From Christensenellales bacterium (GTDB lineage Bacteria; Bacillota; Clostridia; Christensenellales; CALWSW01): a stretch of 64,000 bases of DNA. Below, in pieces: positions 1 through 53,670 of the stretch. The notes under the pieces were generated by a model. That model saw only the letters and a program-made list of their open reading frames with translations, did no database searches and was not told where the DNA came from. Position 1 is the first letter of the stretch; every line of letters begins with the position of its first letter. The stretch lies in assembly GCA_050945915.1 (NCBI GenBank), contig JBMNTV010000002.1, positions 4,599 through 68,598 of the forward strand, written 5' to 3'. The position numbers were made by a program, and so were the translations under genes.

Positions 1-1
1 C

Positions 2-24789: not shown

Positions 24790-24835
24790 TGGAGCTGATG
24801 AGCAGATTCGAACTGCCTACCTCCTCATTACCAAT
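24790..24835 (-). repeat. 46-bp direct repeat (att junction) forming the 3' part of the intact tRNA-Thr
   Basis: Identical to 8122-8167. Confidence 0.9.
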
Positions 24836-34425: not shown

Positions 34426-34446
34426 AGAACCATTGCACATTCTGCT

Positions 34447-34486
34447 CCGCCTGCCGGCAAGTCTCCGGCGGGCGGGTTCTTTTTGG
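34447..34486 (+). terminator. Rho-independent terminator after the phospho-sugar mutase
   Basis: ccgcctgccgg / caagtct / ccggcgggcgg stem with one G-U pair, followed by gttcttttt. Confidence 0.75.
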
Positions 34487-34625
34487 AATTTTGTCGTTTT
34501 TGGGAAACGCATTTGGAAACACCGTCCGAAAAGCCCTTTTCTTTCCCCGTTTTCTGCGTGGCGGCGGGCTTTTGTTTGTGGTAAAATCATGCGTAAAGTT
34601 TTTTTGAAAGCTCTGTGGAGGGAAT

Positions 34626-35480: not shown

Positions 35481-35487
35481 CCGCTGT

Positions 35488-36123
35488 TCAGGACTGGCGG
35501 GAGCGCGCCGGCGCGTCCTGCTGCGCCTTGCCCAGCCCCAGGATTTCCTTGGCGGTGACCTGCACGATGCGAAAATCCACCAAAAAGCACATATTCCGCA
35601 CATACCAAAGGTCCCGGGCCAGCCGTTCCTCCGGTCTGCCCTCCCGGTCTTCCACCTGGGCAAACCCCGTCAGGCCGGGGCGGACATTCAGCCGTTCCAG
35701 GGCGATTTTCGGCATGCTGTTCATCTCCGAAAGCACCAAAGGCCTGGGCCCCACGAAGGACATTTCCCCTTTGAGCACGTTGATGAGCTGGGGAAGCTCG
35801 TCCAAGGACAGCTTGCGCAAAATCCTGCCCACCCTGGTGATCCTCGGGTCGTCCTCCCGGTTGGCGAAGATCTCCCCCGGCTCCTTCAAAAGGTGGGCCA
35901 AGGGTTCTGCCCCCACGTGCATGGTGCGCAGTTTGTAAACTTTGATCAGCCTGTGGTCTTTGCCCACCCGCCACTGGGAAAACAGCGCGCCCCCCGGCGA
36001 ATCCAGCCGGATGATCAGCGCCATCAGGGGGAAAAAGGGCAGCGTTACGACGAGTAAAACGAGGGCGAGCAGCACGTCCAGCCCCCGCTTGATATGGGGA
36101 TACACACTTTTTTTTGACTGCAT
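35488..36123 (-). CDS. Bacterial sugar transferase (small phosphoglycosyl transferase, WbaP/PglC-like)
   Basis: 211 aa. [20 protein letters not shown]..., [26 protein letters not shown] and RPGLTG are hallmark motifs. AAGGAG RBS precedes ATG 36123. The rest of track ORF 35488-37062 was rejected. Confidence 0.9.
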
Positions 36124-36180
36124 CGAAGGACTCCTTGCGGTCAACTCATTCCAATTAGTTTTTTCCGAAAGGACATAAAT

Positions 36181-38067
36181 ATGCACACGTTTGACGCCGG
36201 CACATTTGACGCCGTGGTGGTCGGCGCGGGCCACGCGGGTTGCGAAGCCGCCCTTGCCCTGGCAAGGATGGGGCACCGCACCCTCTGCCTGACCATGAAT
36301 CTGGATTCCGTGGCGCTGATGGCCTGCAACCCCGCCATCGGCGGCTCCAGCAAGGGCCACCTCGTGCGGGAAATCGACGCGCTGGGCGGCGAGATGGGCC
36401 TTGCCGCGGACGAGACTTTGATACAACTGAAACTCCTGAATACCGGCAAGGGCCCCGCCATCCACAGCCTGCGCGCCCAGATGGACAAGCGGCGCTACCA
36501 CGAGCGCATGAAGCGCACCCTGGAGCGGACGGAAAATCTGTTCCTCCGCCAGGGCGAATGCGTAAAAATTCTGGTGGAGGACGGAAAGGCGACAGGCGTG
36601 GTCACCGCCACCGGGGCGGTTTACCGCGCTCGTGTGGTGATCCTCGCCACCGGGGTTTACCTCAAAAGCAGGATCATCATCGGGGAAGCCTCGTTTAACC
36701 AAGGCCCCAGCGGGCTGCAGAGCGCAAATCTGCTTTCCCAAAGTTTGGAAGAATTGGGCTTTCCTCTTCGCCGATTCAAAACCGGGACCCCCGCCCGGGT
36801 GAACCTCCGTTCCTTGGACCTTGAAAAGACCGTACCCCAGTACGGTGACCCCAAGGCCCCGCCCTTTTCCTTCCTGACGAAAGAAAGGAAAGATGCCGAT
36901 CACCCCTGCTATCTGACGTATACCAACGAAACAACCCACGAGCTGATCCGGTCGAATCTGCACCGGGCGCCGATGTACAGCGGCACCATCAAGGGCACAG
37001 GGGCGCGGTATTGCCCCTCGATTGAGGACAAGGTCGTCCGCTTTGCCAACAAGGACCGGCACCAGATCTTCCTGGAGCCGGAGGGGCTGACGACGGACGA
37101 AGTGTACCTCCAGGGCTTGTCCACCTCCATGCCGGAGGATTTGCAGGTGCGGATCATCCGCACCGTCGCCGGGTTGGAACGGGCAGAGGTGATGCGGCCG
37201 GCCTATGCCATCGAGTACGACTGCATCGACCCCACCCAGCTCAACCTCTCCCTGGGCGCGAAAACCATCAAGGGCCTGTATTTCGCCGGCCAGATCAACG
37301 GCACCAGCGGATACGAAGAAGCCGCCGCCCAGGGCATCGTGGCGGGGATCAACGCCTCTTTGTGGCTGCGGGGAAAAGACCCGCTCATCCTGCGCAGGGA
37401 CGACAGCTACATCGGCGTGCTCATCGACGATCTGGTCACCAAGGGCACCAACGAGCCCTACCGCATGATGACCAGCCGCGCCGAATACCGCCTGCTTTTG
37501 CGGCAGGACAATGCGGATCTGCGCCTGACGGAACTGGGTTACGCTGCAGGGCTGGCCACCAGGGAGCGCTACGAAACCATGCGGACCAAAAAGCAGGAGC
37601 TTGAGGAAGAGCTCGCCCGAATGAAGGCGACAAAGGTCCTAAAGTCCGAGTTTTTGCGCATGCTGGAGGAGCGCAATGAGCATTCTCCTAAAAAGATCCC
37701 CACGCTGTTTGACCTTTTGAAGCGGGAGGGGTTCAGCCTTGCGGACGTTTCCCGCTGCGACCCGGACCCCCGCCCCATTTCCCCCGCCGTGGCGGAGCAG
37801 CTGGCGATTGAGGCGAAGTACGAAGGGTACATTGCCAAACAGCGGGACGAGGTGGAGCGCTTCAAAAAGCTGGAGGATCGCCGGATCCCGAAAGATCTGG
37901 ATTATGCGAATCTTTCCGGCCTGCGACTGGAAGCCCGGCAGAAGCTGGACAAGCAGCGGCCGGAAAACATCGGCCAAGCGTCCCGCATTTCCGGCGTTTC
38001 GCCGGCGGACGTGGCGGTGCTGCTCATCGCCGTGGAAAAATACCAACGAGAAAAAGGAGCGCGCTGA
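36181..38067 (+). CDS. mnmG: tRNA uridine-5-carboxymethylaminomethyl modification enzyme MnmG (GidA)
   Basis: 628 aa. Has [18 protein letters not shown] (FAD fold) and is GidA-like over its full length ([11 protein letters not shown]-type segment [11 protein letters not shown]). Confidence 0.96.
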
Positions 38068-38768
38068 TGGACAACGGCATTCTGCTTTCCGCTTTTTCCG
38101 CAGTCTCCTTTACCCCCAGCCCGGAACAGGTGGAACAATTCCAAACCTATCATGCCCTGCTTGCCGAATGGAACCAGCGGATCAACCTGACCGCCGTCAT
38201 CGACGACGAAGGTGTGGCGCAAAAGCACTTTGCGGATTCCCTGCTCGTCCTGCCTTTTTTGAAGGGGGAAGAACGGGTTTTGGACCTGGGCACCGGTGCC
38301 GGATTCCCCGGCGTGCCGCTTTTGATCGCCCGGCCGGGACTCAAACTCACCTTGATGGATTCGGTGAAGAAAAAGCTGGATTTTTTGGCGCATCTGCTGC
38401 CAGAACTCGGCCTGACAGCCGAACTCCTCCATGCCCGGGCAGAGGATGCGGCAAAAAAGACCGAATACCGGGACGGGTTCGACCTCGTCCTTTCCCGGGC
38501 GGTGGCGCCGATGAACGTGCTGGCGGAGCTCGCCCTGCCCTTTGTGCAGCCCGGGGGGAAGGCGGTGTGCTTCAAGGGCCCCGCGCTTTCTGATGAGCTG
38601 GCGGTTGCCCGGCGCGCTTTGCGTGAGCTTTGCGCAAAAGTGGCAGAAGTGCGGGAGTTCTCCCTTCCCTGGGGGGAACGCAAGCTGGCCGTACTCCAAA
38701 AAACCGCGCCCACGCCCAAAAAATACCCCCGCCAGGCGGGAAAAGCGTCCAGGAACCCCCTATGCTGA
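38067..38768 (+). CDS. rsmG: 16S rRNA (guanine527-N7)-methyltransferase RsmG (GidB)
   Basis: 233 aa with VLDLGTGAGFPGVPL. The start overlaps the mnmG stop (TGATG), the canonical mnmG-rsmG pairing. Confidence 0.9.
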   Translation: MDNGILLSAFSAVSFTPSPEQVEQFQTYHALLAEWNQRINLTAVIDDEGVAQKHFADSLLVLPFLKGEERVLDLGTGAGFPGVPLLIARPGLKLTLMDSVKKKLDFLAHLLPELGLTAELLHARAEDAAKKTEYRDGFDLVLSRAVAPMNVLAELALPFVQPGGKAVCFKGPALSDELAVARRALRELCAKVAEVREFSLPWGERKLAVLQKTAPTPKKYPRQAGKASRNPLC

Positions 38769-39244
38769 CGGTGCGCATCGTCTGCGTCGGCAAAATGAAG
38801 GAAAAATTTTATGCCGACGCTGTGAAGGAATACAAAAAGCGGCTATCCAACCGGGTGAAGCTGGACATCGTGGAGGTGAAGGATTTCCCCGCGCCGGACC
38901 GGCTTTCCCCGGCGGAGGAAGCAGCCGTCAAGGACGCTGAGGGCGAGCTGATCTTAAAGGCCATTCAGCCCAACGACCACGTCATCGCCCTGGCCATCGA
39001 GGGCAGGCGAAAAGACTCCCTCGCCTTCGCCGCACAGCTTCAAAACCTGATGAACGCCGGCAAAAGCAGCATCGCCTTCGTCATCGGGGGCTCTTTGGGC
39101 CTGTCCGACGCGGTACTGAAGCGGGCGGACGACACCCTGAGCTTTTCCGACTTCACTTTTTGCCATCAGCTCATGCGGGTCATCCTTTTGGAACAGATCT
39201 ATCGGGCGGTGAAAATCAACGCAGGGGAAAGCTATCACAAATGA
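38762..39244 (+). CDS. rlmH: 23S rRNA (pseudouridine1915-N3)-methyltransferase RlmH
   Basis: 160 aa beginning MLTVRIVCVGKMKEKFYADAVKEYKKRL, with the SPOUT C-terminus ...IAFVIGGSLGLS...LSFSDFTFCHQLMRVILLEQIYRA. Confidence 0.9.
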   Translation: MLTVRIVCVGKMKEKFYADAVKEYKKRLSNRVKLDIVEVKDFPAPDRLSPAEEAAVKDAEGELILKAIQPNDHVIALAIEGRRKDSLAFAAQLQNLMNAGKSSIAFVIGGSLGLSDAVLKRADDTLSFSDFTFCHQLMRVILLEQIYRAVKINAGESYHK

Positions 39245-39792
39245 TTCTTCGGCCGGACGCAGGGAAACGGGATTTTGCCGCCGCTTCTGCGGCTGGCCGG
39301 AATTGTTAATGGATTCACACGCCTCTTTCGCACCTCATATCCTATTCTAACAGAAGAAACAACCCGCCAAGGGGATGCCACCCGGGCTTCGTTTTGGGCG
39401 GCCCTTTTCATCAAAAATCCGCAAAAATGAAGGTCACAAACAGGCGGAACCAACGGGCAAAGCCGCACCGGTTGGCCGCCGCATTCGCTGTTGCGGGGGT
39501 TTCTTCATGAATTTGTAAGTATTGACCGGGTTTCTTTCCCTGCTGTGTTGTGTTATATTGATAAAGTGCAGATTAGCGAAACATCATCATAGCGGCGGTG
39601 GCAAAGCCCTTTGCCCTTGTTGGCGGGGGTTCGTCTTGTCCCGGTTGAACGCGCATCCGCCCCTTGCGAAGCGCTACACGGCGGGCTTTCGGGGCAGCAG
39701 CACGGAACATGCGCGCAAAGCCCACAAACGGCGGCAAAAACGGGTACTTGTTTTGAGATCCGGTTTTGCTGAAAATCCTCGGATTCTGTATC

Positions 39793-39821
39793 TTGCATAT
39801 ATGGCCAATGGGTATTATAAT
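39793..39821 (+). promoter_or_regulatory. Sigma-A-type promoter candidate for serC-serA
   Basis: TTGCAT (39793-39798), a 17-nt spacer, then TATAAT (39816-39821), about 50 nt upstream of the serC ATG. Confidence 0.45.
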
Positions 39822-39870
39822 AAGAGCCTATTGGTTTGTTAATATTTTGACTATCCAACGGAGGATGATC

Positions 39871-40953
39871 ATGAGAGTCTACAATTTTGCTGCGGGCCCC
39901 GCAACTTTGCCCCTGCCCGTTTTGCTCCGCGCCCAGGCCGAACTGGTGGAACACGGCGGAAACGGCATGTCCGTGATGGAGATGACCCATCGCTCTCCGA
40001 TGTTCAAGTCTATCATCGATGGCGCGGAAGCCTCTCTGCGCCGCCTGATGGATATTCCCGAAGATTACGCCGTTTTGTTCCTGCAAGGCGGAGCCACCAC
40101 CCAGTTCTCCGCGGTTCCCATGAATCTGATGCACACCGGCAAGGCGGATTACATCGTTTCCGGCAACTTCGCCGCCAAGGCCGCCAAGGAAGGCGAAAAA
40201 TACGGCGCCGTACGGGTGGTGAAAAGCTCGAAGGACAAGGGTTATGCCTATGTTCCCAAGACCGCCCGGTCGGATTTCGACCCTTCGGCGGATTATGTGC
40301 ACATCACCACCAACAACACGATCTACGGCACGAGTTACCGCACCAACCTGCCGGATTGCGGGGATGTCCCCCTGGTGGCGGACATGTCCAGCAACATCCT
40401 TTCCGAGCCCTACGACGTGCGTCGCTTCGGATTGATTTATGCCGGCGCCCAGAAGAACATCGGACCTGCCGGGGTGACCATCGTCATCGTGCGCAAGGAC
40501 CTCGCCGAAAAGGGGCCGATTGCGGACTTCGTTCCCAGCCTGCTGCGCTATGACATCCAGGTCAAGGACGGCTCCATGCACAACACGCCGCCCACCTTCG
40601 CCATCTATCTGGCGGGCCTGGTGTTCGAAGAACTGGAAAAAACCGGCGGCATCGCGGCCGCCAAGGAGCGCAACGAAGCAAAGGCGAAACTGCTGTACGA
40701 CGTGTTGGACGCTTCCTCCTTCTATCGCCCGGTGGCGGATAAGGAAGACCGCTCCATCATGAACATCACCTTCACCACCCCCGACCCGGATACGGATGCG
40801 CGCTTTGTCAAAGAAGCGGCTGCGCGGGGGCTTGTGAACCTGAAGGGACACAGGGCAGCCGGCGGAATCCGCGCCAGCATCTACAATGCCATGACCATCG
40901 AAGGTGTCCGTGCCCTTTGCGATTTTATGCGCGACTTTGAAAAGAATGCTTGA
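39871..40953 (+). CDS. serC: Phosphoserine aminotransferase
   Basis: 360 aa. MRVYNFAAGPATLPLPVL..., LFLQGGATTQF and YAGAQKNIGPAG (PLP lysine). GGAGGA RBS precedes ATG 39871. Confidence 0.93.
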   Translation: MRVYNFAAGPATLPLPVLLRAQAELVEHGGNGMSVMEMTHRSPMFKSIIDGAEASLRRLMDIPEDYAVLFLQGGATTQFSAVPMNLMHTGKADYIVSGNFAAKAAKEGEKYGAVRVVKSSKDKGYAYVPKTARSDFDPSADYVHITTNNTIYGTSYRTNLPDCGDVPLVADMSSNILSEPYDVRRFGLIYAGAQKNIGPAGVTIVIVRKDLAEKGPIADFVPSLLRYDIQVKDGSMHNTPPTFAIYLAGLVFEELEKTGGIAAAKERNEAKAKLLYDVLDASSFYRPVADKEDRSIMNITFTTPDPDTDARFVKEAAARGLVNLKGHRAAGGIRASIYNAMTIEGVRALCDFMRDFEKNA

Positions 40954-40971
40954 CAGGAGAGTTTGACTGAT

Positions 40972-42132
40972 ATGAATATCCGTATGCTGAACAAAATCGA
41001 CCCCATCGTCCATGAAATCCTCAAGGATTATCACGTCTCGCAGGATTGCGAGGATCCGGTGGGCATCCTCATCCGCAGCGCAAAAATCCACGATATGGAG
41101 TTCCCAGAAAGCCTGCTCGCCATCGCCAGGGCGGGCGCCGGAGTGAACAACATCCCCATCGAGCGCTGCGCACAAGAGGGCATCGTGGTGTTCAACACCC
41201 CCGGCGCCAACGCCAACGCCGTCAAGGAGCTGGTCCTGGCTTCCATCATGATGACCAGCCGCAATCTCTGCGAAGCCATCGAATGGTGCAAATCCCTTTG
41301 CGGCAACCCGGACGCCGCCGCCCTCATCGAAGCGGGCAAGAACCAGTTCGTCGGCCCGGAGCTCAAGGGCAAGACCATGGGCGTCATCGGCCTTGGGGAC
41401 ATCGGCGTCATGGTGGCCAACGAAGCCTATGCCATCGGCATGAACGTCATCGGCTTTGACCCCTTCATCTCGGTGGATCACGCCTGGAAGCTGTCCCGGG
41501 CCATCGAACACGCTTCCTCTTTGGATTACCTGATCCGCGAGTCCGACTTCATCACCCTGCACGTGCCGCTGACGGACGAAACCCGCGGCTTCTTTGGCGA
41601 AAAGCAGCTTGCCGCCTGCAAGCCCACCGCCATGCTGCTCAACTTCTCCCGGGCGGACGTGGTGGACACCACAGCAGTCCTGAAGGCGCTGGAGGAGGAT
41701 CGTCTGGCGAAATACATCGTGGACTTCCCCACGCCGGAGGTCATCTGCAAGAAGAACGTCGTCGCCATTCCCCACCTGGGCGCCTCCACCCCCGAAGCGG
41801 AGGAAAACTGCGCCCGCATGGCCGCCAAGCAGTTAAAGGACTACATCGAAAACGGCAACATCGTCAATTCCGTAAACCTGCCCAATTGCGATATGCCCCG
41901 CAGCGGCGCCATGCGCATCTGCCTGCTGCACAAAAACATCCCCAACATGGTGGGCCGCATCTCCGCCGCAGTGGCGAAGCGAAACGCCAACATCACCAAC
42001 ATGATGAACCGCAGCCGCAATAATTATGCTTATACCATGCTGGATCTGGACGAGGACATCAACAACCACCTGTATGACGACCTCTGCTCCATCGAGGGCA
42101 TGATCCGCACCAGAATCCTCAAGAACAAGTAA
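40972..42132 (+). CDS. serA: D-3-phosphoglycerate dehydrogenase-type 2-hydroxyacid dehydrogenase with C-terminal ACT-like domain
   Basis: Has GVIGLGDIGVMVA (NAD fold), HLGASTPEAE and a C-terminal regulatory domain. It follows serC. ATG 40972 is preferred over TTG 40963. Confidence 0.82.
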   Translation: MNIRMLNKIDPIVHEILKDYHVSQDCEDPVGILIRSAKIHDMEFPESLLAIARAGAGVNNIPIERCAQEGIVVFNTPGANANAVKELVLASIMMTSRNLCEAIEWCKSLCGNPDAAALIEAGKNQFVGPELKGKTMGVIGLGDIGVMVANEAYAIGMNVIGFDPFISVDHAWKLSRAIEHASSLDYLIRESDFITLHVPLTDETRGFFGEKQLAACKPTAMLLNFSRADVVDTTAVLKALEEDRLAKYIVDFPTPEVICKKNVVAIPHLGASTPEAEENCARMAAKQLKDYIENGNIVNSVNLPNCDMPRSGAMRICLLHKNIPNMVGRISAAVAKRNANITNMMNRSRNNYAYTMLDLDEDINNHLYDDLCSIEGMIRTRILKNK

Positions 42133-42289
42133 TTGTTGCAATATTTCCGCGCCCGTCGATGCGGCCCCGCCGCCCGATGGGCGCAAGTACTTTTTGGGGA
42201 CAAAAATAAGAACCTGCTGTGACAAACTCCAGCAGGTTTCATGTTGTCCCCTGTGATTCTTGATCGATCTTGTGGAACTGGCTGGGTGT

Positions 42290-43249
42290 TCAGCAGCGTT
42301 CAAACATTTTCAAGAGCCGCAAATAATGGTTCGCCTCCCGCAGCACGTGATCCCCCAGCAGCGGGATGATGATGGACCGGATGTTGCAGGCAAGGATTCC
42401 CTGGGTGCCCTGGGCCTTGAAGTTCCGCAGGTCCTTCGTCGCCTTCAGGCTTTCCTGGGTCACCTTCGCAAAGCAAGCCGCATCATCCATCGCCGCCTTG
42501 GCGGCCGCCGTCAGCTTATCAAACTCGCAGCCGAATTCATTCGCCTGGCAGATCAGTTCATTCTCCGTCGGGTCCAAAAGCCCCCGGATGAATTTGGCGT
42601 GTTCCGCCATCTGCCTGTTCCAGAAGCGCTCCTGCTCCAGGGCATCCTTTTCATAGCTGCACTCTTCCCTCTTTTGCAGCTTCTTCAGCGTCTTTTCATA
42701 AAGTTCCGCCTCGCGGATGATGTGTTTGATCAGCAACGGATAGTTGAACGTGAACATCTTGCAATCCAATTGATCGCACAACACCTTGGTCTTAAACTGG
42801 ATGAGATCGTCCGTTGCCTTGATCGCCCTGTTGTTGAGGGCGGCGACGCGCTGTTCAAACATCGGGGTGGCCCGGAAGTTGCCGCCGCAGGTGAGCCTTG
42901 CTTCCGCCTGGGTCAGTTCGGTGGGAATCTGAACCCCCGTTAAGAAGATGGTGGCCTGCTCAGCATTCAAAGTAAAGGGCGTGATGACTTCGCCGGACTG
43001 CAGAATGTCGCAACTGACTACGCCATTGGAAAGGGAAACGGCTTCCGCCAAAATTGCGTCAAACTCCTTGCGAAATCCATCCGCCTTTTTCGCACAATCG
43101 GCATCCCGGGGCGTAAAGCCCGCCTGAAGGAAAAATGCGTGTTCCTTCATGATCCTTGCAAAAAACAAATGTAAACCCAAGGATTGTTTTATGAAATCAA
43201 CTCTTGAGAGCATCCTGGTGACCTCCTGTTCGGGTACTTGCTTCTCCAT
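42290..43249 (-). CDS. DUF2935-like helical-repeat protein (function unknown)
   Basis: 319 aa. It has two internally similar halves with ...FFARIMKEHAFFLQ... and ...FWNRQMAEHAKFIRG..., which I recall as typical of DUF2935. Not confirmed by search. Confidence 0.55.
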   Translation of the reverse strand: MEKQVPEQEVTRMLSRVDFIKQSLGLHLFFARIMKEHAFFLQAGFTPRDADCAKKADGFRKEFDAILAEAVSLSNGVVSCDILQSGEVITPFTLNAEQATIFLTGVQIPTELTQAEARLTCGGNFRATPMFEQRVAALNNRAIKATDDLIQFKTKVLCDQLDCKMFTFNYPLLIKHIIREAELYEKTLKKLQKREECSYEKDALEQERFWNRQMAEHAKFIRGLLDPTENELICQANEFGCEFDKLTAAAKAAMDDAACFAKVTQESLKATKDLRNFKAQGTQGILACNIRSIIIPLLGDHVLREANHYLRLLKMFERC

Positions 43250-43419
43250 TATATGTTCACATGATTGAAACTGTTATCCGGTTGACAAGGCATGTTTTCA
43301 AGAATCCGCCAGGGAGAAACGCCCTGGCGCTGTTTTCTTTGCCCGATTTGTGTTACCATGGTCATTGACGTAAACTAGGAGGAGACTTGAATGCGCATTT
43401 GAAGGAGGAACCGTGAACC

Positions 43420-44820
43420 ATGATCCCAGCGCCGGTAGAGCAGCTTGCAGCCGCCTTCCAAAAAAGCGGCCATTCCCTGTTTGCTGTGGGAGGAATGGTG
43501 CGAAACCCCCTGCTGGGCTTTCCCATCAGCGATATGGACGTGACGACGGACGCGCTGCCCGAAGAATCGCTGAAAATCGGGGAAGAGTTGGGGCTGATCG
43601 CCATTCCCAAGGCGGTGCAGTTCGGCACCGTGGAGCTGATCGCGCCGGACAAGAGCTGGTCCGTGGAATGCACCACCTTCCGGGCGGATGTTTACGGCCC
43701 CGGCGGGTTCCACAGGCCGACGGGGGTGCGCTTTTCCAAGGATCTGGAGTCGGACGCCTTTCGCAGGGATTTTACCGTCAACGCCATCTATCAAAACGCG
43801 CTGACGGGGGACATCGTGGACCCCACCGGCGGCATGGAAGACCTGAAAAACCGGCTGCTTCGCGCGACTTCCAAGGACCCCTGCGTCATCATGGGGGACG
43901 ACGGGCTGCGGGTGTTGCGACTGGTGCGCTTCGCCTGCGAACTGGGCTTTGATATCGAGCCAAAAACCCGGGATGCGGCGAAGGAGTTCGCCGAAGGGTT
44001 GGCCGACATTCCCGCCGAGCGCAAATACGCCGAGCTGAAAAAAATCCTGCTTTCCGACGTGCGCTACCACGCGCCCCAGCCCCGGGGCGAACACGCGGTG
44101 CTGCGGGCGCTGAATCTGATGCGCGACCTCGGTTCCCTGCAATACGTCATCCCCGAGCTTTTAGAGGGGGAAAACGTCGCCCAAAATCCCCAGTACCACG
44201 CCTATGACGTGATGAACCACGCCTTTATGGTCGCCGCCAGCACGCCGCCGGAACTCGTCTTGCGCCTTGCGGGGCTGTTGCACGACATCGCCAAGCCCGT
44301 CGTCTTTCACAAAACCGGACGCATGCATGGCCACGAGTCCGAAGGCGCAAAAATTGCCCGGGAAATACTCGCCCGGCTGAAGGTGGAAAAGGCCGTCACC
44401 GAGCGGGTGTGTTCCCTGATTCGCTGGCATATGTACGATTTGGACGGCCGCGCCAGGGAAAAGACCCTGAAGAAGCAGTTCGTCCAGTGGGGGAAGGCGT
44501 TCGTACTGGACCTTGCCACCCTCCGGGAGGCGGACGTCATCGGTTCGGGCATCTCCAGGGAGCCGGAGAGCACCGCCCAGCGCTGGCGGCGGGTGCTTTC
44601 GGAGATGATCGAAACCAACACCCCCTTTTCGGAAAACGAGCTGGACATCACCGGTCAGGACATCGCCGCTTTGGGCTTTTTGGGCAAGCAGATCGGCGAA
44701 GTCAAGCGCGCCCTGTGGATGCACTGCGCCGTTCACCCCAACGAAAACCAAAACAAACGATTGATTCGCCTTGCCCGGGGCATGGGAAAACGATTCCATG
44801 ACCCCGCTCTCAAGGATTGA
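43420..44820 (+). CDS. cca: CCA-adding tRNA nucleotidyltransferase (PolyA-pol head + HD domain)
   Basis: Contains LFAVGGMVRNPLLGFPISDMDVTT, RRDFTVNA and an HD region LLHDIAKP. Confidence 0.85.
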   Translation: MIPAPVEQLAAAFQKSGHSLFAVGGMVRNPLLGFPISDMDVTTDALPEESLKIGEELGLIAIPKAVQFGTVELIAPDKSWSVECTTFRADVYGPGGFHRPTGVRFSKDLESDAFRRDFTVNAIYQNALTGDIVDPTGGMEDLKNRLLRATSKDPCVIMGDDGLRVLRLVRFACELGFDIEPKTRDAAKEFAEGLADIPAERKYAELKKILLSDVRYHAPQPRGEHAVLRALNLMRDLGSLQYVIPELLEGENVAQNPQYHAYDVMNHAFMVAASTPPELVLRLAGLLHDIAKPVVFHKTGRMHGHESEGAKIAREILARLKVEKAVTERVCSLIRWHMYDLDGRAREKTLKKQFVQWGKAFVLDLATLREADVIGSGISREPESTAQRWRRVLSEMIETNTPFSENELDITGQDIAALGFLGKQIGEVKRALWMHCAVHPNENQNKRLIRLARGMGKRFHDPALKD

Positions 44821-44831
44821 TGGATGGTATC

Positions 44832-45632
44832 ATGCAGATTAAATTTGTTCCTATTTTTTCCGGCAGTTCGGGCAACTGCGCCCTTTTTGCCACCGAAGGC
44901 GCCAAACTGCTCATCGACGCAGGCAAGCCCGGCTCTGCCATCATCGATCAGCTCAAAAGGCTGAAGCTGGACCCGTCCAGCCTGGACGGGATCCTCGTTA
45001 CCCACGAACACACCGACCATTCCAAGGGCGTTGGCGTGCTTTCCAGAAGATTCGATCTTCCGGTTTATGCCACCGCCGCCACCTTTTCCGCCATGGAACG
45101 GTCCATCGGTTCCATCGCTTCCAAAAACCTGCGCGTCATCCACGCGGGGCGCGAGTTTTCCGTGGGGAACGTTTGCGTGTTCCCCATATCGATTCCCCAT
45201 GACGCGGCGGACCCTGTGGGCTTTATGATCCGCTGCTGCGGCCGCACCGTCGCTCAGTTCACAGACCTCGGACATATGCCAAAGGAAATCCTGAATACCG
45301 CCGCCGAAGCCGACCTGGTGGTGCTGGAGAGCAATCACGACGTTTGCATGCTGAAAAACGGGCCGTATCCCGCAAGGCTGAAAAACCGCATCCTGGGCAG
45401 GCGGGGCCATCTTTCCAACGATACTGCGGCGGAATCCGCCGTCGCCCTCGCCCGCCGGGGGGTAACTACCATCGTCCTCGGCCACCTCAGCGCCCAGAAC
45501 AACACCGAAACCGTCGCCTATGAAACGGTGTGCAACGCCCTTTGCAAAGAAGGCCTGCGCCTTGGGGAGGATCTTCGCCTGGAGGTCGCCTCCCGGGAAG
45601 GCCCCACGATCGCGTTTGATTTGAGCGTTTAG
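44832..45632 (+). CDS. MBL-fold metallo-hydrolase
   Basis: Has the THEHTDHSKG (HxHxDH) motif. The start is ambiguous (44817/44820/44832). Confidence 0.8.
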   Translation: MQIKFVPIFSGSSGNCALFATEGAKLLIDAGKPGSAIIDQLKRLKLDPSSLDGILVTHEHTDHSKGVGVLSRRFDLPVYATAATFSAMERSIGSIASKNLRVIHAGREFSVGNVCVFPISIPHDAADPVGFMIRCCGRTVAQFTDLGHMPKEILNTAAEADLVVLESNHDVCMLKNGPYPARLKNRILGRRGHLSNDTAAESAVALARRGVTTIVLGHLSAQNNTETVAYETVCNALCKEGLRLGEDLRLEVASREGPTIAFDLSV

Positions 45633-45760
45633 GTTTCTGCGCCCTTGCTGTGCGTTGATCCATTTCCTTCGCCCGGAACCTTGGACCGGTGCAAAGAAAT
45701 CCGAACTGGCTTTGCCTGTTCAGATCCGGCCCCAAACGGGCATTCATCAGGAGCATTCAA

Positions 45761-46603
45761 ATGAGGATCATTTCCGAAAACCAGATTTCCGAGCTGGTGC
45801 GGTCGCTTTTTTTGCGCTGCGCCTATTGCGTGACGCCGGATGTGGAGCGCGCCGTTCGCTCCGCCCTGGATGCCGAGGAGTCCCCCGCAGGCAAAGCCGC
45901 CCTCGCTCAGATCCTCGAAAATCACAGGATCGCGAAAGAACAGCGCCTGCCCATCTGCCAGGACACCGGTATGGCCGTCATTTTTGCGAAGGTGGGCTGC
46001 GAAGCGGTGATCGACGGCGATTTTAACGCCGCGGCGAACCGTGGCGTGCGCAAGGCCTACGCCGAAGGGTTCCTGCGAAAATCTGTGGTCACAGACCCGC
46101 TGTATGAGCGGCGCAACACCATGGACAACACCCCCGCCATCCTTCACGTGGAGCTGGTGCCCGGCGACGGGATCGAGCTTTTTGTCACCGCCAAGGGCTT
46201 CGGCAGCGAAAACATGAGCGCCATTCGCATGCTCTCTCCCGGGGAGGGGGAGCGGGGGGTTGTGGATTTCGTCGTCGAAACGGTAAAAAAAGCAGGCCCG
46301 AACCCCTGCCCCCCCGTTATCGTGGGCGTGGGCATCGGCGGCACCATGGAATACGCCGCCCTGCTTGCCAAAAAAGCCGCCCTGCGGGAACTGGGCAGCC
46401 ACAACGAAGACCCGCGCTACGCCGCGCTGGAAGAGGAGTTGCTTCAAAGGATCAACCGCCTGGGCATCGGCCCCGCCGGAATCGGCGGCCGCAATACGGC
46501 CCTGGGCGTAAACGTGCTTTTTGCGCCCACCCACATTGCCGGTCTGCCCGTGGCAGTGAACATCTGCTGCCATGCCGCGCGGCATGCAAGGGGATCCATT
46601 TAA
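45761..46603 (+). CDS. Fe-S class I fumarate hydratase / L(+)-tartrate dehydratase, alpha (N-terminal) subunit
   Basis: 280 aa. Carries PICQDTGMAVIF and the GVGIGGT motifs of the class I hydrolyase alpha subunit. Confidence 0.88.
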   Translation: MRIISENQISELVRSLFLRCAYCVTPDVERAVRSALDAEESPAGKAALAQILENHRIAKEQRLPICQDTGMAVIFAKVGCEAVIDGDFNAAANRGVRKAYAEGFLRKSVVTDPLYERRNTMDNTPAILHVELVPGDGIELFVTAKGFGSENMSAIRMLSPGEGERGVVDFVVETVKKAGPNPCPPVIVGVGIGGTMEYAALLAKKAALRELGSHNEDPRYAALEEELLQRINRLGIGPAGIGGRNTALGVNVLFAPTHIAGLPVAVNICCHAARHARGSI

Positions 46604-46893
46604 TTTTGATTTGAATTGGATTGAATTTCTGGACCGGTCCAGTATTCGTCAGCCTGCACTTTTTTGCACCACCCTTGCCGTCATCGCTGATAATGCCGCC
46701 ATTTGGGCGGCTCGGAAGGCAGTTTCATCAATCCAACGAATGGCCTCGCGGTGTTCATCATCCGCCATGCCAGCGGTGCGCAAGAGGTTGGGGTTATTGA
46801 AAATGTCTTTGAACCGGTCCATCCGGTTTACGTTATGATTTTCCTGTCACCTGCTATAAAACGCACAACATTCTTCAATCCGAAAGGCATTCC

Positions 46894-47448
46894 ATGAACA
46901 TCACACTTCCTTTAGATGAAGCAACCGCCCGTTCCCTGCGGGCGGGGGACAATGTGTTGCTGTTCGGCCCGATGTTTGTCGCCCGGGACGCTGCCCATAA
47001 GCGGCTGATCGCCCTGCTTACCGAAGGCCTTCCCCTGCCCTTTTCCATCCAAGGCGAAACCATCTATTACGCCGGGCCTTCCCCCGCGCCGGCAGGGCGG
47101 ATCATCGGTTCCGCCGGGCCCACCACCTCCGGCCGCATGGATCGGTACACGCCCCAACTCCTGGACCTTGGCCTTCGCTGCACCATTGGCAAAGGCAGGC
47201 GCAGCCAAGAAGTGCTGTCTTCCATGAAAAAAAACGCCGCCGTTTACCTCGGCGTAACCGGCGGCGCCGCTGCGTTGATCGCAAACTGCGTCACGCGAAG
47301 CGAAGTCGTCTGTTATGAGGATTTAGGCCCGGAAGCTGTGCGCAGAATCTGGGTGGAGGGCATGCCCGCCGTGGTGCTGGCGGATACCCTGGGGAACGAC
47401 CTGTACGAGCTGGGAAAAAAACAGTATCGGCAACCCCTGGAACCATGA
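46894..47448 (+). CDS. Fe-S class I fumarate hydratase / tartrate dehydratase, beta (C-terminal) subunit
   Basis: 184 aa. Carries GPMFVARDAAHKRL and GPTTSGRMD...IGKG motifs. Confidence 0.88.
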   Translation: MNITLPLDEATARSLRAGDNVLLFGPMFVARDAAHKRLIALLTEGLPLPFSIQGETIYYAGPSPAPAGRIIGSAGPTTSGRMDRYTPQLLDLGLRCTIGKGRRSQEVLSSMKKNAAVYLGVTGGAAALIANCVTRSEVVCYEDLGPEAVRRIWVEGMPAVVLADTLGNDLYELGKKQYRQPLEP

Positions 47449-47450
47449 GC

Positions 47451-47486
47451 AAAAAACCGAGGGCAAAGGATGCCTTCGGTTTTTTA
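47451..47486. terminator. Bidirectional rho-independent terminator
   Basis: aaccgagggc / aaaggat / gccttcggtt stem flanked by an A-run and a T-run, between convergent genes. Confidence 0.75.
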
Positions 47487-48237
47487 GCAGTATGTGTGCA
47501 GGATTGCATTCAGCCTTCCCTTTTTGGTCCTGCCCGTAACGCCGCCATACACAAATCGCCCGAATCCCCGGACCGACACGATCTCCCCCTTGTTCAGCTG
47601 CCTGCTTGCGTTTTTGCACACCGCCGCATCCACAAACACCCGTTCATTATGGAAGAGTTCCGCGCTTTGATTCCGGGAAAGACGATAGGTTTTGGCGACG
47701 ATGGCATCCACTCGTTCGGAGGAAATTTGAATTTTATGTTCCAATAGGTTGTAAAGAGGCCCTTCGGGCGAGCGATCCAAAACCGCGCATTGGACGCTTT
47801 GCCTGCCCACCCGACTCAGGTTTTCCGCGATCCACTCCGCCATCGAAGCAAGTCAGAAAACAAAAGCCGTATCCTTTTGCACTGCGATGTCCCCAAGTAT
47901 GGACCGGTCCACGCCGAGGCCGAGGATCGCGCCCAGCACATCCCTGTGGGACAGCACCGCTCCAAAGCGGGCGGCAACGGCAGAAACCCCCACGCAGGAA
48001 ATGGGGAAGGGTTCCGAAAAGCCGAATTCCTCCTCGGATCCGAACCGCGCCACCCGCCTTTCGCAATCCACAGTTCCGCCAAACAGCGAAAGGGGCAGGG
48101 CCAGTTCCTTCTTCATCGAAACCAGCACCGCCTGCTCCTCCACATTCAAAAAGCCGGTGAAGGTAAACTTTTGCGTCCGCTCCGCCCTTTGGCAAAGTTC
48201 AAAAACGCTTTTTTATCTGGGAACGATCCTTTTCCAT
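47484..48237 (-). pseudogene. ylmH: YlmH-like S4-domain RNA-binding protein gene carrying an in-frame TGA and a homopolymer frameshift
   Basis: ORFs 47853-48149 and 47484-47843 are in the same frame, separated by TGA (47853-47855): ...GDIAVQKDTAFVF*LASMAEWIAENLSRVGRQSV. That reading is collinear with B. subtilis YlmH as I recall it. The N-terminus MEKDRSQIKK (ATG 48237) is out of frame at the T6 run 48209-48214. Confidence 0.7.
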
Positions 48238-48430
48238 GGCGGCATCATAGCATGTTTGGCCTTCCTTTACCAGCTCGCGGGAGTGTTCAAACGGCATTTT
48301 TGTGCCCCTGCACCCTCCTTTCTTCAAATTTCAATGTTCTGTAAACCTTTGTTGCCCCGTTTGTGTTTGCTCTTTCGATCTGTTATATTTTCCATATGGT
48401 TTGGAAACCTAAACCATAGGAGGATCTTTA

Positions 48431-49888
48431 ATGCCACAATCCATTCAACAACGCGCCGCAGCACTCTTACTGGCGCTTTCTGTCCTGTTTCTTGCCTGCT
48501 GTTCCCCCAAAGCAGAAACGCCCCCCTCCCCTTCACCCACCCCGTTGGAAGGCGTCGTTGGCACCCCCGCCCCTGTTGCCACCATCGCGCCTGCGCCCCC
48601 TCCTTCTTTCACGCCACAACCCACCCCGGAACCAGATTTTCCGGCAGGCCCTGCCGAGGAGGTCCTTCCCCCGGCTGGAGTGACCCGGTATCTAAAAAAC
48701 GGTTCGCCCTTTCTTTGCCCCCACGATACGCAGGAAATTTGCAAAACCTGCTTGTCAAAAGGCGCGCTTCCGCTGCCCGACGCAAACCGTCTGCTGGCGA
48801 TCCTGCGCTTTTTGACTGCAAAGAGCAGGCTGACCGGCTCAGAACACTGCGCCCACAGCGCCGCGTTCATCCAGGCCGCCCTTGTTGAATGCGGTTATGA
48901 GCCTGCTTTGCAAACCGTCAGCACGGACAATACGGGTTATGTGTTTTCCGGCGAGAGCGCCCTTGCCTTTGGCGAAACCGTCCTTCCCATGGAATATGTT
49001 TACGGCAGCGCCCAGGGGATTCGATCCGGCCCCGCTGTCTTTTGCGGCGAAGGCTACCCCCTTCCGGAAAGCGCTGAAGGGGCTGTGCTGATTTCGAACG
49101 GCGCGGGAACCCTGAACATCATACAGGCGCTTGGGTTAGGAACGCCCGCCGCCGTCATCCTCGTCAACCCGTATCCATCCCTGGCCGAAAATGTTCCCGC
49201 CCTCTGGCCGGAAGCCATCGTTTTGGCCACAGATGACAGTAATTTGTTTCATTTAGTTAAATCGGGGGATATTTTGTCGGTTACCAGCACCGAAAACGGC
49301 CCCTTTGAAAGCGAGAACATCATCGCGGAGTTGAATCCCGGCGCAAAGGAAACCATCATACTATGCGCCCATTACGACAGCGTCTCCACCTCCCCCGGCG
49401 CGAGTGACAATGCCTCCGGCGTAGCTGTGCTCCTGGAGCTCGCCCGGGTGTTTTCCAAACTTCCCATCCACCGCCGGATCGTGTTCCTGTTTACCACGGG
49501 GGAGGAGCAGGGCATGCTGGGAGCGTGGGTTTATTCCAGGGAGCTTGCCAAAGGGGAACGCGATTCCATCCGCGCGGTATACGCTTTGGACATGTTCGCG
49601 GATCTTAATCAAAGCACCCCCTTAATTTACACCTGCGACGGGGAGCCGGACACCGCCGTCGCCCTGCTCCTCGCCGCCTGCGAAGCCTATCCCCTGCCAA
49701 AGCCCCTGCTGAGTAAGGAGTTTCGCTCCGACCATGCGCCGTTTTACGGGATCGGGCTCCCTGCGGCGCTGTTCGCCCAAAGCGAATCGGACGAACTTTA
49801 CCACACGCCCTACGACACGATGGACAAGCTTTCCGCTGAATACATGGACCTTGTGTTTGCCTGGACCGCCGGTATCCTTCTTCGCTAA
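48431..49888 (+). CDS. M28-family zinc aminopeptidase lipoprotein
   Basis: Signal plus lipobox LFLAC, a Pro-rich linker, and the catalytic region LCAHYDSV...GASDNASGVAVLLELA...FTTGEEQG. Confidence 0.8.
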   Translation: MPQSIQQRAAALLLALSVLFLACCSPKAETPPSPSPTPLEGVVGTPAPVATIAPAPPPSFTPQPTPEPDFPAGPAEEVLPPAGVTRYLKNGSPFLCPHDTQEICKTCLSKGALPLPDANRLLAILRFLTAKSRLTGSEHCAHSAAFIQAALVECGYEPALQTVSTDNTGYVFSGESALAFGETVLPMEYVYGSAQGIRSGPAVFCGEGYPLPESAEGAVLISNGAGTLNIIQALGLGTPAAVILVNPYPSLAENVPALWPEAIVLATDDSNLFHLVKSGDILSVTSTENGPFESENIIAELNPGAKETIILCAHYDSVSTSPGASDNASGVAVLLELARVFSKLPIHRRIVFLFTTGEEQGMLGAWVYSRELAKGERDSIRAVYALDMFADLNQSTPLIYTCDGEPDTAVALLLAACEAYPLPKPLLSKEFRSDHAPFYGIGLPAALFAQSESDELYHTPYDTMDKLSAEYMDLVFAWTAGILLR

Positions 49889-49910
49889 TACCCCAAAAAG
49901 GCATATAAAG

Positions 49911-51194
49911 ATGAAGATGAACATTTTATACGAGGACAATCACCTGCTTTGCGCCGTCAAACCCCAGAACATGCCCGTCGCCGAAGATGAGTCCCGGGAT
50001 TTGGACCTTTTGAACGCCCTGAAGGGCTACATCAAGGAAAAATATCAAAAGCCGGGGGCGGTTTTTCTTGGACTGGTCCACAGGCTGGACAGGCCCGCGG
50101 GGGGCGTGCTGGTCTTTGCGCGCACCTCCAAAGCGGCGGCCCGCCTGTTTGATGCCATGCGGTCGGGGAAGTTCGAAAAAACCTATCTCGCCGTTCTCTG
50201 CGGTTCTGGACCGGACCAGGGGGAGCTGGTGGATTATCTCGTCAAGGACGAAAAAACCCGCTGCAGCCGCGTGATTTCCAAGGGCGAGCCCGGCGCAAAA
50301 GAAGCGCGCCTTTCCTTTGAAACGATTGCCCGGGCAGAGGGCCTGACGCTGGTCAAAATTCGGCTGCATACCGGGCGGCACCATCAGATCCGGGTGCAAT
50401 TCGCCAGCCGTGGTCTCCCCCTTTACGGAGACGCGCGCTACAATCCCCAGTCAAAGCCAGGGCAGCAGCTTGCCCTGTGGGCGGCATCCCTCTCCTTCCC
50501 TCACCCCACCAGGAAGGAAACCATTACCATTGCGCAGAACCCGCCCTCCCTTTACCCCTGGACAGAGTTTGCCAAGCATACCATCGGCTTTTCCATTCCC
50601 ATCCTGTATGAGGACGGCAAATTGCTCGCCGTGGACAAACCCGTCGGGATGGAGGTGGAGGGTGAACTTTCCGCCCTGGTGCGCCGCCGCTTCCCCACTG
50701 CCCGGCCCTGCCACAGGCTGGACGCCAACACCACCGGCATCACCCTGTTCGCCCTGACGGAGCAGGCGTATGAAGACATTACCAACGGAATCAAACAGCG
50801 AAAGATCGAGAAAATCTACCGCTGCGTGGTCAAGGGAAGGCCGCATCCTTCGCAAAAACTCTGCCGCGCCTGGCTGAAAAAGGATGCCGAAGCCGCGCGG
50901 GTGTTCATTTGTGACCGCCCCATCGAAGGCGCGAAGGAAATTCTGACTGAATACTGGGTGGAAGAAAGCCGCGGGGATACCTCGGTGCTTTCCGTGAAGC
51001 TGATCACCGGACGCACCCACCAGATCCGCGCGCACCTCGCCCACCTTGGCCATCCCATCCTGGGGGACGACAAATATGGCGATCGCGCCTTCAACAAAGG
51101 CAAGGGGCAAAAGACCCAGCTGCTGCGGGCGGTGCGGGTGGTGGTGGACATTCCGGGTTATCAAACCACCATCGAAGCCCCATGCACCTTTTGA
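49911..51194 (+). CDS. Fusion of two RluA-family pseudouridine synthase catalytic domains
   Basis: Domain 1 has LYEDNHLL...GLVHRLDRPAGG...HTGRHHQIRVQF. Domain 2 has ILYEDGKLL...PCHRLDANTTG...ITGRTHQIRAHL. Both catalytic Asp motifs are intact in one continuous ORF. Confidence 0.85.
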   Translation: MKMNILYEDNHLLCAVKPQNMPVAEDESRDLDLLNALKGYIKEKYQKPGAVFLGLVHRLDRPAGGVLVFARTSKAAARLFDAMRSGKFEKTYLAVLCGSGPDQGELVDYLVKDEKTRCSRVISKGEPGAKEARLSFETIARAEGLTLVKIRLHTGRHHQIRVQFASRGLPLYGDARYNPQSKPGQQLALWAASLSFPHPTRKETITIAQNPPSLYPWTEFAKHTIGFSIPILYEDGKLLAVDKPVGMEVEGELSALVRRRFPTARPCHRLDANTTGITLFALTEQAYEDITNGIKQRKIEKIYRCVVKGRPHPSQKLCRAWLKKDAEAARVFICDRPIEGAKEILTEYWVEESRGDTSVLSVKLITGRTHQIRAHLAHLGHPILGDDKYGDRAFNKGKGQKTQLLRAVRVVVDIPGYQTTIEAPCTF

Positions 51195-51329
51195 AACAGT
51201 CGCCAAACCCATGTTTTTGAGCAGCGACTGCGACAGCGGGGTATTTTCCCATTTTTTCATGGCACACTAATGTTATAATCATGATGCTGTTGCGGGTTGA
51301 TTGCCAAACAAAAGGAGGATGCCCCAGAA

Positions 51330-51677
51330 ATGGAAGATATTTTTGACAAAATCGTGGAAGGCGTCAAAAAAGGTGCCAGTACCGTCAAAAAAGGCGCCAG
51401 CGTGGTGGCGGACAAGGGCGAACAGTTGGTAGAGCTGACCAAGCTGCGCGCCGCCCGGGCCCGGCTTCAGGACGAGCTGGAGAGGAACTACGCGGAACTT
51501 GGCCGCGAGCTTTACGAGATGGTGGAGCGCGACCACATCATTTCCGAGACCCTCCGGTCCCGCTGCGCCGTCATCGGCCATATCAAGGCCCAGATAGCGG
51601 ACAGTATTGCCGAGGAAACCGAGCGGTTCGAAGGCAAGAAAAAAGAAGAAGAGAAAAAGAAGAATCCAGAAGAATAG
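51330..51677 (+). CDS. Hypothetical coiled-coil protein with Lys/Glu-rich tail
   Basis: 115 aa from MEDIFDKIVEGVKKGAS. AAGGAGG lies upstream of ATG 51330 and a strong terminator follows. No family recognised. Confidence 0.6.
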   Translation: MEDIFDKIVEGVKKGASTVKKGASVVADKGEQLVELTKLRAARARLQDELERNYAELGRELYEMVERDHIISETLRSRCAVIGHIKAQIADSIAEETERFEGKKKEEEKKKNPEE

Positions 51678-51691
51678 CTCCAGTTGCAAAG

Positions 51692-51730
51692 GGCGCGGGT
51701 TTTCGGTTGTGGAAAACCTGCGCCTTTTTA
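51692..51730 (+). terminator. Rho-independent terminator
   Basis: ggcgcgggttttc / ggttgtg / gaaaacctgcgcc followed by ttttt. Confidence 0.8.
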
Positions 51731-51905
51731 TTTCTTAAAAACCAACCATTGTTGACAATGTGTGGAAAAGGTGGAAAACTCCCGCGCCTTTTCACAAGGT
51801 ATCCACTTGTTTTCAATGCCCAAAAGCCAGTGTTTTGGCTGGTTGCCACTGGTTTTCCACCTGTCCACAACCCCTACTACTACTACTACGTACTTATTTA
51901 TTTGG
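51708..51905. promoter_or_regulatory. oriC segment downstream of dnaA: DnaA-box-like 9-mers plus GC cluster, (CTA)5 and an AT-rich stretch
   Basis: tgtggaaaa occurs at 51708 and 51761, ttttccacc at 51853 and ctgtccaca at 51861. These are followed by ccc, cta x5 (51874-51888), then cgtacttatttattt. Confidence 0.6.
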
Positions 51906-51956
51906 AGCAGCCGCCAAAACCCGCACAAAGGCGAACCCGAACGCAAAAACGCCGGC

Positions 51957-51989
51957 AAAAAAGAAAAACGCCCCGAAAAGTGGGGCGTT
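51957..51989 (-). terminator. Rho-independent terminator of dnaA
   Basis: Minus strand: aacgcccc / acuuuuc / ggggcguu followed by a U-run, starting 4 nt after the dnaA TGA. Confidence 0.8.
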
Positions 51990-51992
51990 TCG

Positions 51993-53300: not shown

Positions 53301-53436
53301 ATTATCCTCCATTCGATGTTGAAAACCGGCGCGCATATCCACATATGAAATTGGTTAAAGACGTTAACTATGTGAATACGCTTCGTACATTATAGCAAAT
53401 GCGACGTAAATAGTGAAGCGTATATTGGGTTTTAGG

Positions 53437-53523
53437 TTTTCCACATCCATCACATCACATTTATGTGGATAACGTGGATAACTCGGCGGTTTTCTGTGGA
53501 TAATGTGCAAAAACTTATCCATA
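53437..53523. promoter_or_regulatory. DnaA-box cluster upstream of dnaA (oriC / dnaA promoter region)
   Basis: Two perfect TGTGGATAA boxes (53464-53472, 53495-53503). Three one-mismatch boxes: ttttccaca 53437, cgtggataa 53473, ttatccata 53515. Confidence 0.8.
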
Positions 53524-53670
53524 ACGCCGTGAAGACTGTGAAAAAAGCGTATCACCACCCAAACGGCAAAAAGTGTTATCCTTATTTTGGCGATTCCTGT
53601 ATTCGTTTTCAAATTGTTTTTTTGTGTTTGATCCAATGATGCGATACAATACCAAACAACAGGGGGTTGG

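Follow-up and report, generated by a model that had tools for sequence, protein, structure and literature searches.

Can a dnaA gene that stands apart from the usual neighbours of a Firmicute replication origin still mark the site at which the chromosome begins to replicate? The question is raised by a 64 kb stretch of DNA (~58% G+C; hereafter the window) on contig JBMNTV010000002.1 of a Christensenellales bacterium, in which dnaA is solitary and faces a long run of genes on the opposite strand. A sequence-only reading had left two explanations: that an inversion or translocation had broken the chromosome at oriC, or that this dnaA locus is not the active origin. Here we suggest that the locus is very likely a functional bipartite chromosomal origin of the Bacillus/Clostridium type, carried by an uncultured, gut-type Christensenellales clade (Clostridia) in a derived gene context. 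The rearrangement is old and clade-specific, and represents an unusual layout of a known origin type, not a new mechanism. A literature search brought up no publication on Christensenellales origins.

Genes were identified by means of Pfam and NCBIfam profiles. The dnaA product is full-length and matches the NCBIfam equivalog TIGR00362 with 539.7 bits (cut-off 343.9). Translation probably begins at the ATG at 53300, which is preceded by GGAGG and would yield a protein of 435 amino acids, fitting the length of the closest DnaA homologs (435-440 amino acids). The gene had been described as solitary with its own terminator, and a hairpin with a T-run is indeed present, separated from the stop codon by 1 nt and not, as had been stated, by 4 nt. 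A 49-nt stretch containing it folds with -16.9 kcal/mol (z = -3.0), and the stem is maintained in relatives although its sequence varies. The reported absence of dnaN, recF and gyrB after dnaA, and of the rpmH/rnpA/yidC/jag block, was borne out by tblastn with the proteins of relatives: DnaN, RecF, GyrB, GyrA, RpmH, RnpA, YidC, Jag and MnmE had no match in the 64 kb window, and Pfam scans of its other large open reading frames (ORFs) returned none of the expected origin-neighbour genes. The place of dnaN is taken by a gene for a small coiled-coil-like protein, which is 79-87% identical in the relatives L001, L002 and L005; neither this gene, beside oriC2, nor the 176-aa gene beside oriC1 matches a Pfam or NCBIfam family.

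Relatives were found by a DnaA scan of species-representative genomes, which returned three Christensenellales metagenome-assembled genomes (MAGs) with 86-91% identity and, with 45%, a single Oscillospiraceae genome, and further loci were added by homolog look-ups (all loci carry L numbers).

DnaA boxes are strongly overrepresented in the window. Allowing at most one mismatch to the box TTATCCACA, 23 were counted where 7.4 are expected, a number reached in none of 100 shuffles. They are concentrated at 51.7-52.1 kb, 53.3-53.5 kb and 62.4-62.5 kb, and both intergenic regions flanking dnaA hold a cluster. The upstream region, oriC1, has 6 boxes of this quality between 53335 and 53523 (2 of them perfect) together with a dnaA promoter-like site, and both the boxes and the promoter are retained in L001, L002, L003 and L005. 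The downstream region, oriC2, contains 2 boxes with at most one mismatch, the box pair of the unwinding element described below, and weaker boxes. One further detail is that the loop of the small-gene terminator holds the DnaA box TTTTCCACA (minus strand, 51708-51716). The oriC2 region is maintained in L001, L002 and L005 and is homologous to that of the more distant L025 and L006. Spo0A boxes (TGTCGAA) were found in neither half of oriC.

Within oriC2 lies an element that agrees in every point of sequence with the published definition of a basal unwinding system (BUS), namely one or more DnaA boxes with up to 2 mismatches, a spacer of up to 16 nt (typically ~13), at least three DnaA-trios with the central A on the bound strand, and adjoining AT-rich DNA (PMC8287927). 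It reads TTTTCCACC-TGTCCACA-ACCC-(CTA)5-CGTACTTATTTATTT; the five CTA trios are perfect and begin 4 nt from the proximal and 12 nt from the distal box. The trio run closely resembles that of C. difficile, CACCTACTACTATTACTACTA (PMC7561715). The element is the only one of its kind on either strand of the window, and none of 300 windows simulated with a first-order Markov model contained one. In intergenic alignments with a mean column identity of 75-77%, the BUS core, the oriC1 boxes and the dnaA promoter stand out as conserved islands. DnaA bound at the two boxes by the trios would extend as a filament onto the 3'-GAT-5' trios and open the adjoining AT tract at ~51.89-51.91 kb, from where forks would depart in both directions.

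The orientation of the element is unusual. Typically the unwinding module lies on the dnaA sense strand and faces away from dnaA, as it does in L004, L006, L014 and L025. In the window, and equally in L001, L002 and L005, it is located on the strand antisense to dnaA and thus aims at the dnaA 3' end.

Nucleotide composition also changes at this place. The cumulative G-C count, taken per base over the window, has its minimum at 51,060, and GC skew is -0.039 between 32.6 and 51.9 kb and +0.039 between 51.9 and 64 kb (p = 7e-7). For plus-strand genes, skew at third codon positions (GC3 skew) amounts to -0.17 on the left, a lagging-strand signature, and +0.04 on the right (p = 0.006), and the few minus-strand genes mirror this; since genes are mostly plus-strand on both sides, coding bias is controlled in the comparison. 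In the window as in L005, less than 1 kb separates the change of sign from the BUS, and the flip in GC3 polarity is repeated in L005 and L011.

The layout is common to a clade. Colinearity with the window is seen in at least four other Christensenellales MAGs, whose DnaA proteins are 86-92% identical. In L001, L002, L003 and L005 (76-82% DNA identity) the colinearity extends across both dnaA junctions, small gene-oriC2-dnaA and dnaA-oriC1-next gene; these are four independent assemblies from different studies, three of them from the species-representative set. On JAXGLZ010000001.1, a 1.0 Mb contig from one of the colinear MAGs that includes locus L011, mnmG (383,981-385,867, plus strand) and dnaA (~400,166-401,515, minus strand) are 14.3 kb apart, in agreement with the window in both spacing and orientation. 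A more distant member, L012, whose MnmG is 78% identical, has the same gene order from the formyltetrahydrofolate synthetase gene (FTHFS) to ylmH. The sequence-only reading had allowed for the arrangement being simply the norm of its lineage, conserved with the skew switching at this point; this holds for the clade, but not for the order, in which other members have the canonical layout. The JAXGLZ/CAYRKY species contain an abundant dispersed intergenic repeat of ~110 nt, present in both orientations, resembling repetitive extragenic palindromes or miniature inverted-repeat transposable elements (REP/MITE-like) and lacking a match in Rfam. It occupies many intergenic sites in L002, L005, L011 and L019-L023 (e.g., L019 6225-6366; L011 13467-13633, 16162-16407 and 18978-19160), including sites within the mnmG-dnaA block and the dnaN locus of these relatives, and has zero copies in the window.

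Features of the dnaA region and its surroundings (positions in the window)
Feature	Position	Strand	Remarks
Plus-strand gene run	32707-51677	plus	~14 genes, ~19 kb, begins at pgm; Pfam
SAM (S-adenosylmethionine)-dependent methyltransferase, RlmI/RlmK-like	34626-35480	plus	PF10672; partial NCBIfam matches
mnmG (gidA)	36181-38067	plus	Pfam GIDA 5.9e-160; mnmE not upstream
rsmG (gidB)	38067-38768	plus	Pfam GidB 3.1e-46
rlmH (SPOUT methyltransferase)	38630-39244 (ORF)	plus	Pfam SPOUT_MTase 2.9e-55
Small conserved coiled-coil-like protein	51330-51677	plus	Family unassigned; convergent with dnaA, in the place of dnaN
Small-gene intrinsic terminator	51688-51728	plus	-27.6 kcal/mol, z = -4.95
oriC2 DnaA-box region	51705-51870		Downstream of dnaA; boxes at 51708, 51761, 51853, 51861 and weaker ones
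BUS	51853-51905	plus	Boxes TTTTCCACC and CTGTCCACA; spacer ACCC; five CTA DnaA-trios (3'-GAT-5' on the other strand); then ACTTATTTATTT
dnaA intrinsic terminator	51965-51991	minus	Hairpin and T-run; first base 1 nt past the stop codon
dnaA	51993-53342	minus	Monocistronic; Pfam DnaA_N, Bac_DnaA, Bac_DnaA_C
oriC1	53343-53670		Upstream of dnaA; DnaA-box cluster and dnaA promoter-like site
dnaA promoter-like site	53417-53389	minus	Within oriC1
spo0A	61194-62030	minus	Pfam
Third DnaA-box cluster	62422-62515		6 boxes in 94 bp, 2 perfect; divergent spo0A/veg intergenic region
veg	62625-62912	plus	Pfam

More distant Christensenellales and an Oscillospiraceae genome, with DnaA 45-59% identical, retain the order jag-yidC-rnpA-rpmH, dnaA-dnaN-recF. 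Such canonical layouts are found in L004 (Oscillospiraceae), L006/L007, L008-L010 and L014, and include Luoshenia tenuis and its relatives. In L014 the full order is parA-parB-rsmG-mnmG-mnmE-jag-yidC-yidD-rnpA, followed by dnaA-dnaN-recF and, further on, gyrB-gyrA. In each of these canonical relatives in which a BUS was detected (L004, L006, L014), the element shares the sense strand with dnaA and is aimed at dnaN. Shuffling of the origin region appears to have predated the clade, since in L006/L007, the closest canonical relative, gyrA is upstream of parA-parB and not after recF. L006/L007 also have an additional DnaA-box cluster between parB and jag (5701-5743).

The nearest outgroup, L025/L026, was recovered from two samples (JGI 3300029305 and 3300031555; 1-3264), and its DnaA is 62% identical to that of the window. 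Here dnaA is followed by a methyltransferase gene and then by oriC2 with the BUS, all on a single strand, and the adjacency of dnaA and dnaN is already lost. The L025 methyltransferase is 77% identical in amino acid sequence to the product of the window gene at 34626-35480, its ortholog, and judged by gene order L025/L026 represent an intermediate state. The "genes" called over oriC1 (96 aa) and oriC2 (158 aa) in these two loci are translated DnaA boxes and trios.

The dnaN gene of the clade was located with the DnaN of the closest canonical relative as query, which gave matches of 58-68% identity and the members of their cluster. P0256, at one time a candidate for the DnaN of the clade, was rejected because it belongs to canonical-layout Christensenellales; it served as ancestral reference. 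On JAXGLZ010000001.1, dnaN (253,867-254,976, plus strand) lies ~145 kb from dnaA, on the mnmG side and on the strand opposite to dnaA. dnaN, a 119-aa gene and recF together occupy 253.9-256.4 kb of this contig, on which dnaA is found at 400.2-401.5 kb in the opposite orientation. The local order is a helix-turn-helix gene, dnaN, the 119-aa gene, recF and, on the other strand, an FMN_bind gene; gyrB does not follow. The same locus recurs as L023 in the MAG to which L005 belongs and as L017/L018 in the sample from which L003 came. In the clade, dnaA would now be transcribed alone and no longer together with dnaN. Rfam searches returned only a tRNA-Thr in the window and only an FMN riboswitch in L019 and L002.

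The inversion or translocation with a breakpoint at oriC, one of the two earlier explanations, is therefore supported by the canonical outgroups, the displaced dnaN-recF, the flipped BUS and the order dnaA, methyltransferase, unwinding module in L025. In such a scenario, the segment from the methyltransferase to oriC2 would have been flipped against dnaA, bringing the AT end of oriC2 beside the dnaA terminator and the methyltransferase onto the opposite strand. At least one inversion would then have ended within the ~90 bp that separate the dnaA terminator from the AT end of oriC2, with additional breakpoints towards rpmH and towards dnaN. Further events must account for the 16 kb that now separate methyltransferase and oriC2, for the missing rpmH flank and for the shift of dnaN by 145 kb. 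Histories of a single inversion, starting from the canonical or from an L025-like state, were tried against three features: the BUS at and facing the dnaA 3' end, the methyltransferase at a distance of 17 kb, and dnaN at 145 kb in opposite orientation. None yields all three at once, and at least two or three rearrangement events are required. Because single-event histories fail, only the positions of the breakpoints are claimed: these would separate dnaA from oriC2 and oriC2 from dnaN, and would also fall outside oriC1. Inverted repeats around oriC2 that might have mediated the flip have arms of only 12-19 nt and are mostly DnaA boxes and terminator stems. As genomes with a DNA identity of only 76-82% have the layout in common and the skew has returned to equilibrium, the rearrangements would predate the radiation of the clade.

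Several observations weigh against an active origin at dnaA. About 80% of the genes adjoining oriC2 are head-on to a fork leaving it, which is unusual for a long-standing origin. The main remaining oddity is that with an origin at dnaA, dnaN, recF and ileS of the relative, ~146 kb to the left, would be head-on as well. The GC3 contrast at this dnaN locus has the expected sign and is not significant, the AT-rich tract past the trios is short (~12 nt), and the skew evidence spans only ~64 kb in the window and ~60 kb in relatives. To the left of 32 kb the skew is noisy, with some minus-strand genes appearing lagging-like, partly via low-GC islands. Finally, the history is only partly reconstructed, as no single rearrangement gives the present order from either outgroup state.

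The head-on neighbours, the head-on strand of the distant dnaN, recF and ileS and the lack of significant polarity there are what would be expected if the dnaA locus were a relic or a secondary DnaA-binding region, with replication beginning elsewhere, e.g., near dnaN-recF or rpmH-rnpA-yidC-jag. We regard this explanation, the second of those raised by the sequence-only reading, as quite improbable. The bipartite oriC is complete, with the only BUS of the window, and no non-coding stretches are better conserved than this element and both box clusters; the skew switches sign within 1 kb of the BUS in two genomes; and the adjacent dnaA encodes a full-length, equivalog-level protein. The alternative sites offer no such features: neither DnaA boxes nor trios were found at the relatives' dnaN locus or at their mnmG loci, and there is no box cluster near mnmG in the window, L011 or L012.

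A second alternative places unwinding at the third box cluster, between spo0A and veg, and leaves the boxes flanking dnaA with the autoregulation of dnaA only. This cluster, 9 kb from dnaA, is the densest in the window, lies in an intergenic region of 39% GC, and is near-invariant in L002 and L005 despite an overall genome identity of ~76%. However, a DnaA-trio run adjoins none of its boxes, and without trios the cluster is not taken for the origin. The cumulative skew minimum is at 51.06 kb instead, and the genes from 53.6 to 62 kb already have the skew of the right replichore, so that unwinding at 62.4 kb is very unlikely. B. subtilis has comparable DnaA-box clusters (DBCs) outside its origin (PMC5295017). 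Like these, and as expected of DBC/datA-like sequences, the window cluster combines dense consensus boxes with a position off the unwinding site and no trios; its setting between spo0A and veg is its own. It probably is a DnaA-regulated promoter, which could be that of spo0A or veg, or a DnaA titration site. Beyond veg, spoIIR is found at 62966-63466.

The last alternative, an assembly or binning artefact with a chimeric join at 51-54 kb, might be suggested by the metagenome-type source data and by the lack of any record with the exact DnaA protein of the window, but it is extremely unlikely and misassembly is effectively excluded, because four independent assemblies with full colinearity have both junctions in common and one colinear relative is a 1.0 Mb contig.

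With the dnaA locus thus retained as the probable origin, its closest counterparts are the bipartite origins of B. subtilis and C. difficile (oriC1/incAB-dnaA-oriC2/incC). These likewise have box clusters on both sides of dnaA and, downstream of it, a BUS of paired boxes, a short GC spacer, CTA/3'-GAT-5' trios and an AT tract. The differences are in the surroundings: the window lacks the rnpA-rpmH and dnaN-recF-gyrB-gyrA flanks, its unwinding module is inverted relative to dnaA, and dnaA is monocistronic, ending at a terminator of its own, unlike in B. subtilis, where dnaA and dnaN form an operon. The rnpA-rpmH and dnaN-recF-gyrB flanks of Firmicute origins have been described as conserved (PMC7561715, PMC5295017). 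In E. coli it is oriC that has left dnaA, which is 44 kb off, and lies directly beside gidA (mnmG)/mioC. The window does not have an oriC adjoining mnmG and apart from dnaA; its origin stays with dnaA, while dnaN and rpmH have moved and mnmG is 14-16 kb off, facing the origin. The origin of H. pylori, a member of a different phylum, presumably also lacks an adjacent dnaN and has foreign flanks. It is alike in outline, being bipartite and split by dnaA (oriC1-dnaA-oriC2; PMC7561715). By contrast with H. pylori, the architecture of the clade is clearly derived from the Firmicute type, since its oriC2 is homologous to that of the canonical relatives.

The plus-strand run to the left of the origin comprises pgm, an rRNA-methyltransferase-like gene, mnmG, rsmG, rlmH, a class-V aminotransferase, a 2-hydroxyacid dehydrogenase, the CCA-adding enzyme, a metallo-beta-lactamase (MBL) hydrolase, fumarase alpha and beta, an M28 peptidase, an RluA-family synthase and the small coiled-coil protein. 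mnmG, rsmG and rlmH are 13-16 kb from dnaA and read towards it. Pfam identities and coordinates agree with the earlier placement of mnmG-rsmG ~14 kb off, on the opposite strand and facing dnaA. The actual start of rlmH is probably near 38768, within the longer ORF of the table, given that the RlmH proteins of relatives have 160 aa.

The block from 36 to 51.7 kb had been read as lying wholly on the plus strand, which is mostly the case; within it, the DUF2935 gene and a ylmH-like gene are on the minus strand. Over the whole run the minus-strand interruptions are Bac_transf (35524-36123, directly before mnmG), DUF2935 (42290-43249) and the ylmH-like gene (47484-48203). The accompanying inference, that the block is head-on to a leftward fork, stands for ~14 of the 17 genes located from 32.7 to 51.7 kb. 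The cost of replication-transcription conflict for these genes may be bearable, since they encode housekeeping enzymes and RNA modification functions and are not rRNA or ribosomal-protein operons.

Some genes of the run deserve separate mention. The DUF2935 gene, on the co-directional strand between the 2-hydroxyacid dehydrogenase and the CCA-adding enzyme, appears to be a species-specific insertion, as it is absent at the corresponding position in L011, L012 and L013. The ylmH-like gene (PF17774 in relatives, 244-273 aa) contains an in-frame stop (...VF*LASM...) and, being intact in L005, L011 and L012, would be a pseudogene or a sequencing error in the window. The RluA-family pseudouridine synthase (49734-51194, likely start 49917) has two PseudoU_synth_2 matches in one 425-aa protein and is thus a tandem-domain form.

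Further to the left, low-GC islands at 8-12, 15-19 and 22-25 kb (45-50% against ~59% elsewhere) disturb the local skew. Among their genes are one for a tyrosine integrase (8273-9223) and, beside tRNA-Thr (24790-24865), a ParB-like one (22596-23768), and the islands probably represent integrated mobile elements. A complete bacterial non-homologous end joining pair is encoded at 4174-7847, where Ku precedes a multidomain LigD with phosphoesterase, ligase and primase-polymerase domains.

The clade might be seen as nature's own test of a rewired Firmicute initiation module, with three changes: a BUS that works although flipped relative to oriC1 and dnaA, a dnaN that is freed from DnaA autoregulation (145 kb off and without boxes), and a strongly conserved DnaA-box cluster at the divergent spo0A/veg promoters, 9 kb from the origin. 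Taken as a whole this is a speculative and rather unlikely proposal. If true, the spo0A/veg cluster could place the master regulator of sporulation under direct DnaA control; we know of no Sda-type checkpoint demonstrated in the lineage.

For genome analysis, origin prediction that relies on the adjacency of dnaA and dnaN may misplace the origin in genomes of this kind. The correct origin matters for the start points of Christensenellales MAGs and for coverage-based (peak-to-trough) estimates of growth rate. The head-on gene block is a natural one, situated at an origin, and could be used in studies of replication-transcription conflict. More generally, the oriC1-dnaA-oriC2 core can persist as a unit of ~2 kb though all flanking genes have been exchanged and the unwinding module has been flipped, which raises the question of how real the constraint is on dnaA-dnaN co-transcription and on the orientation of the BUS.

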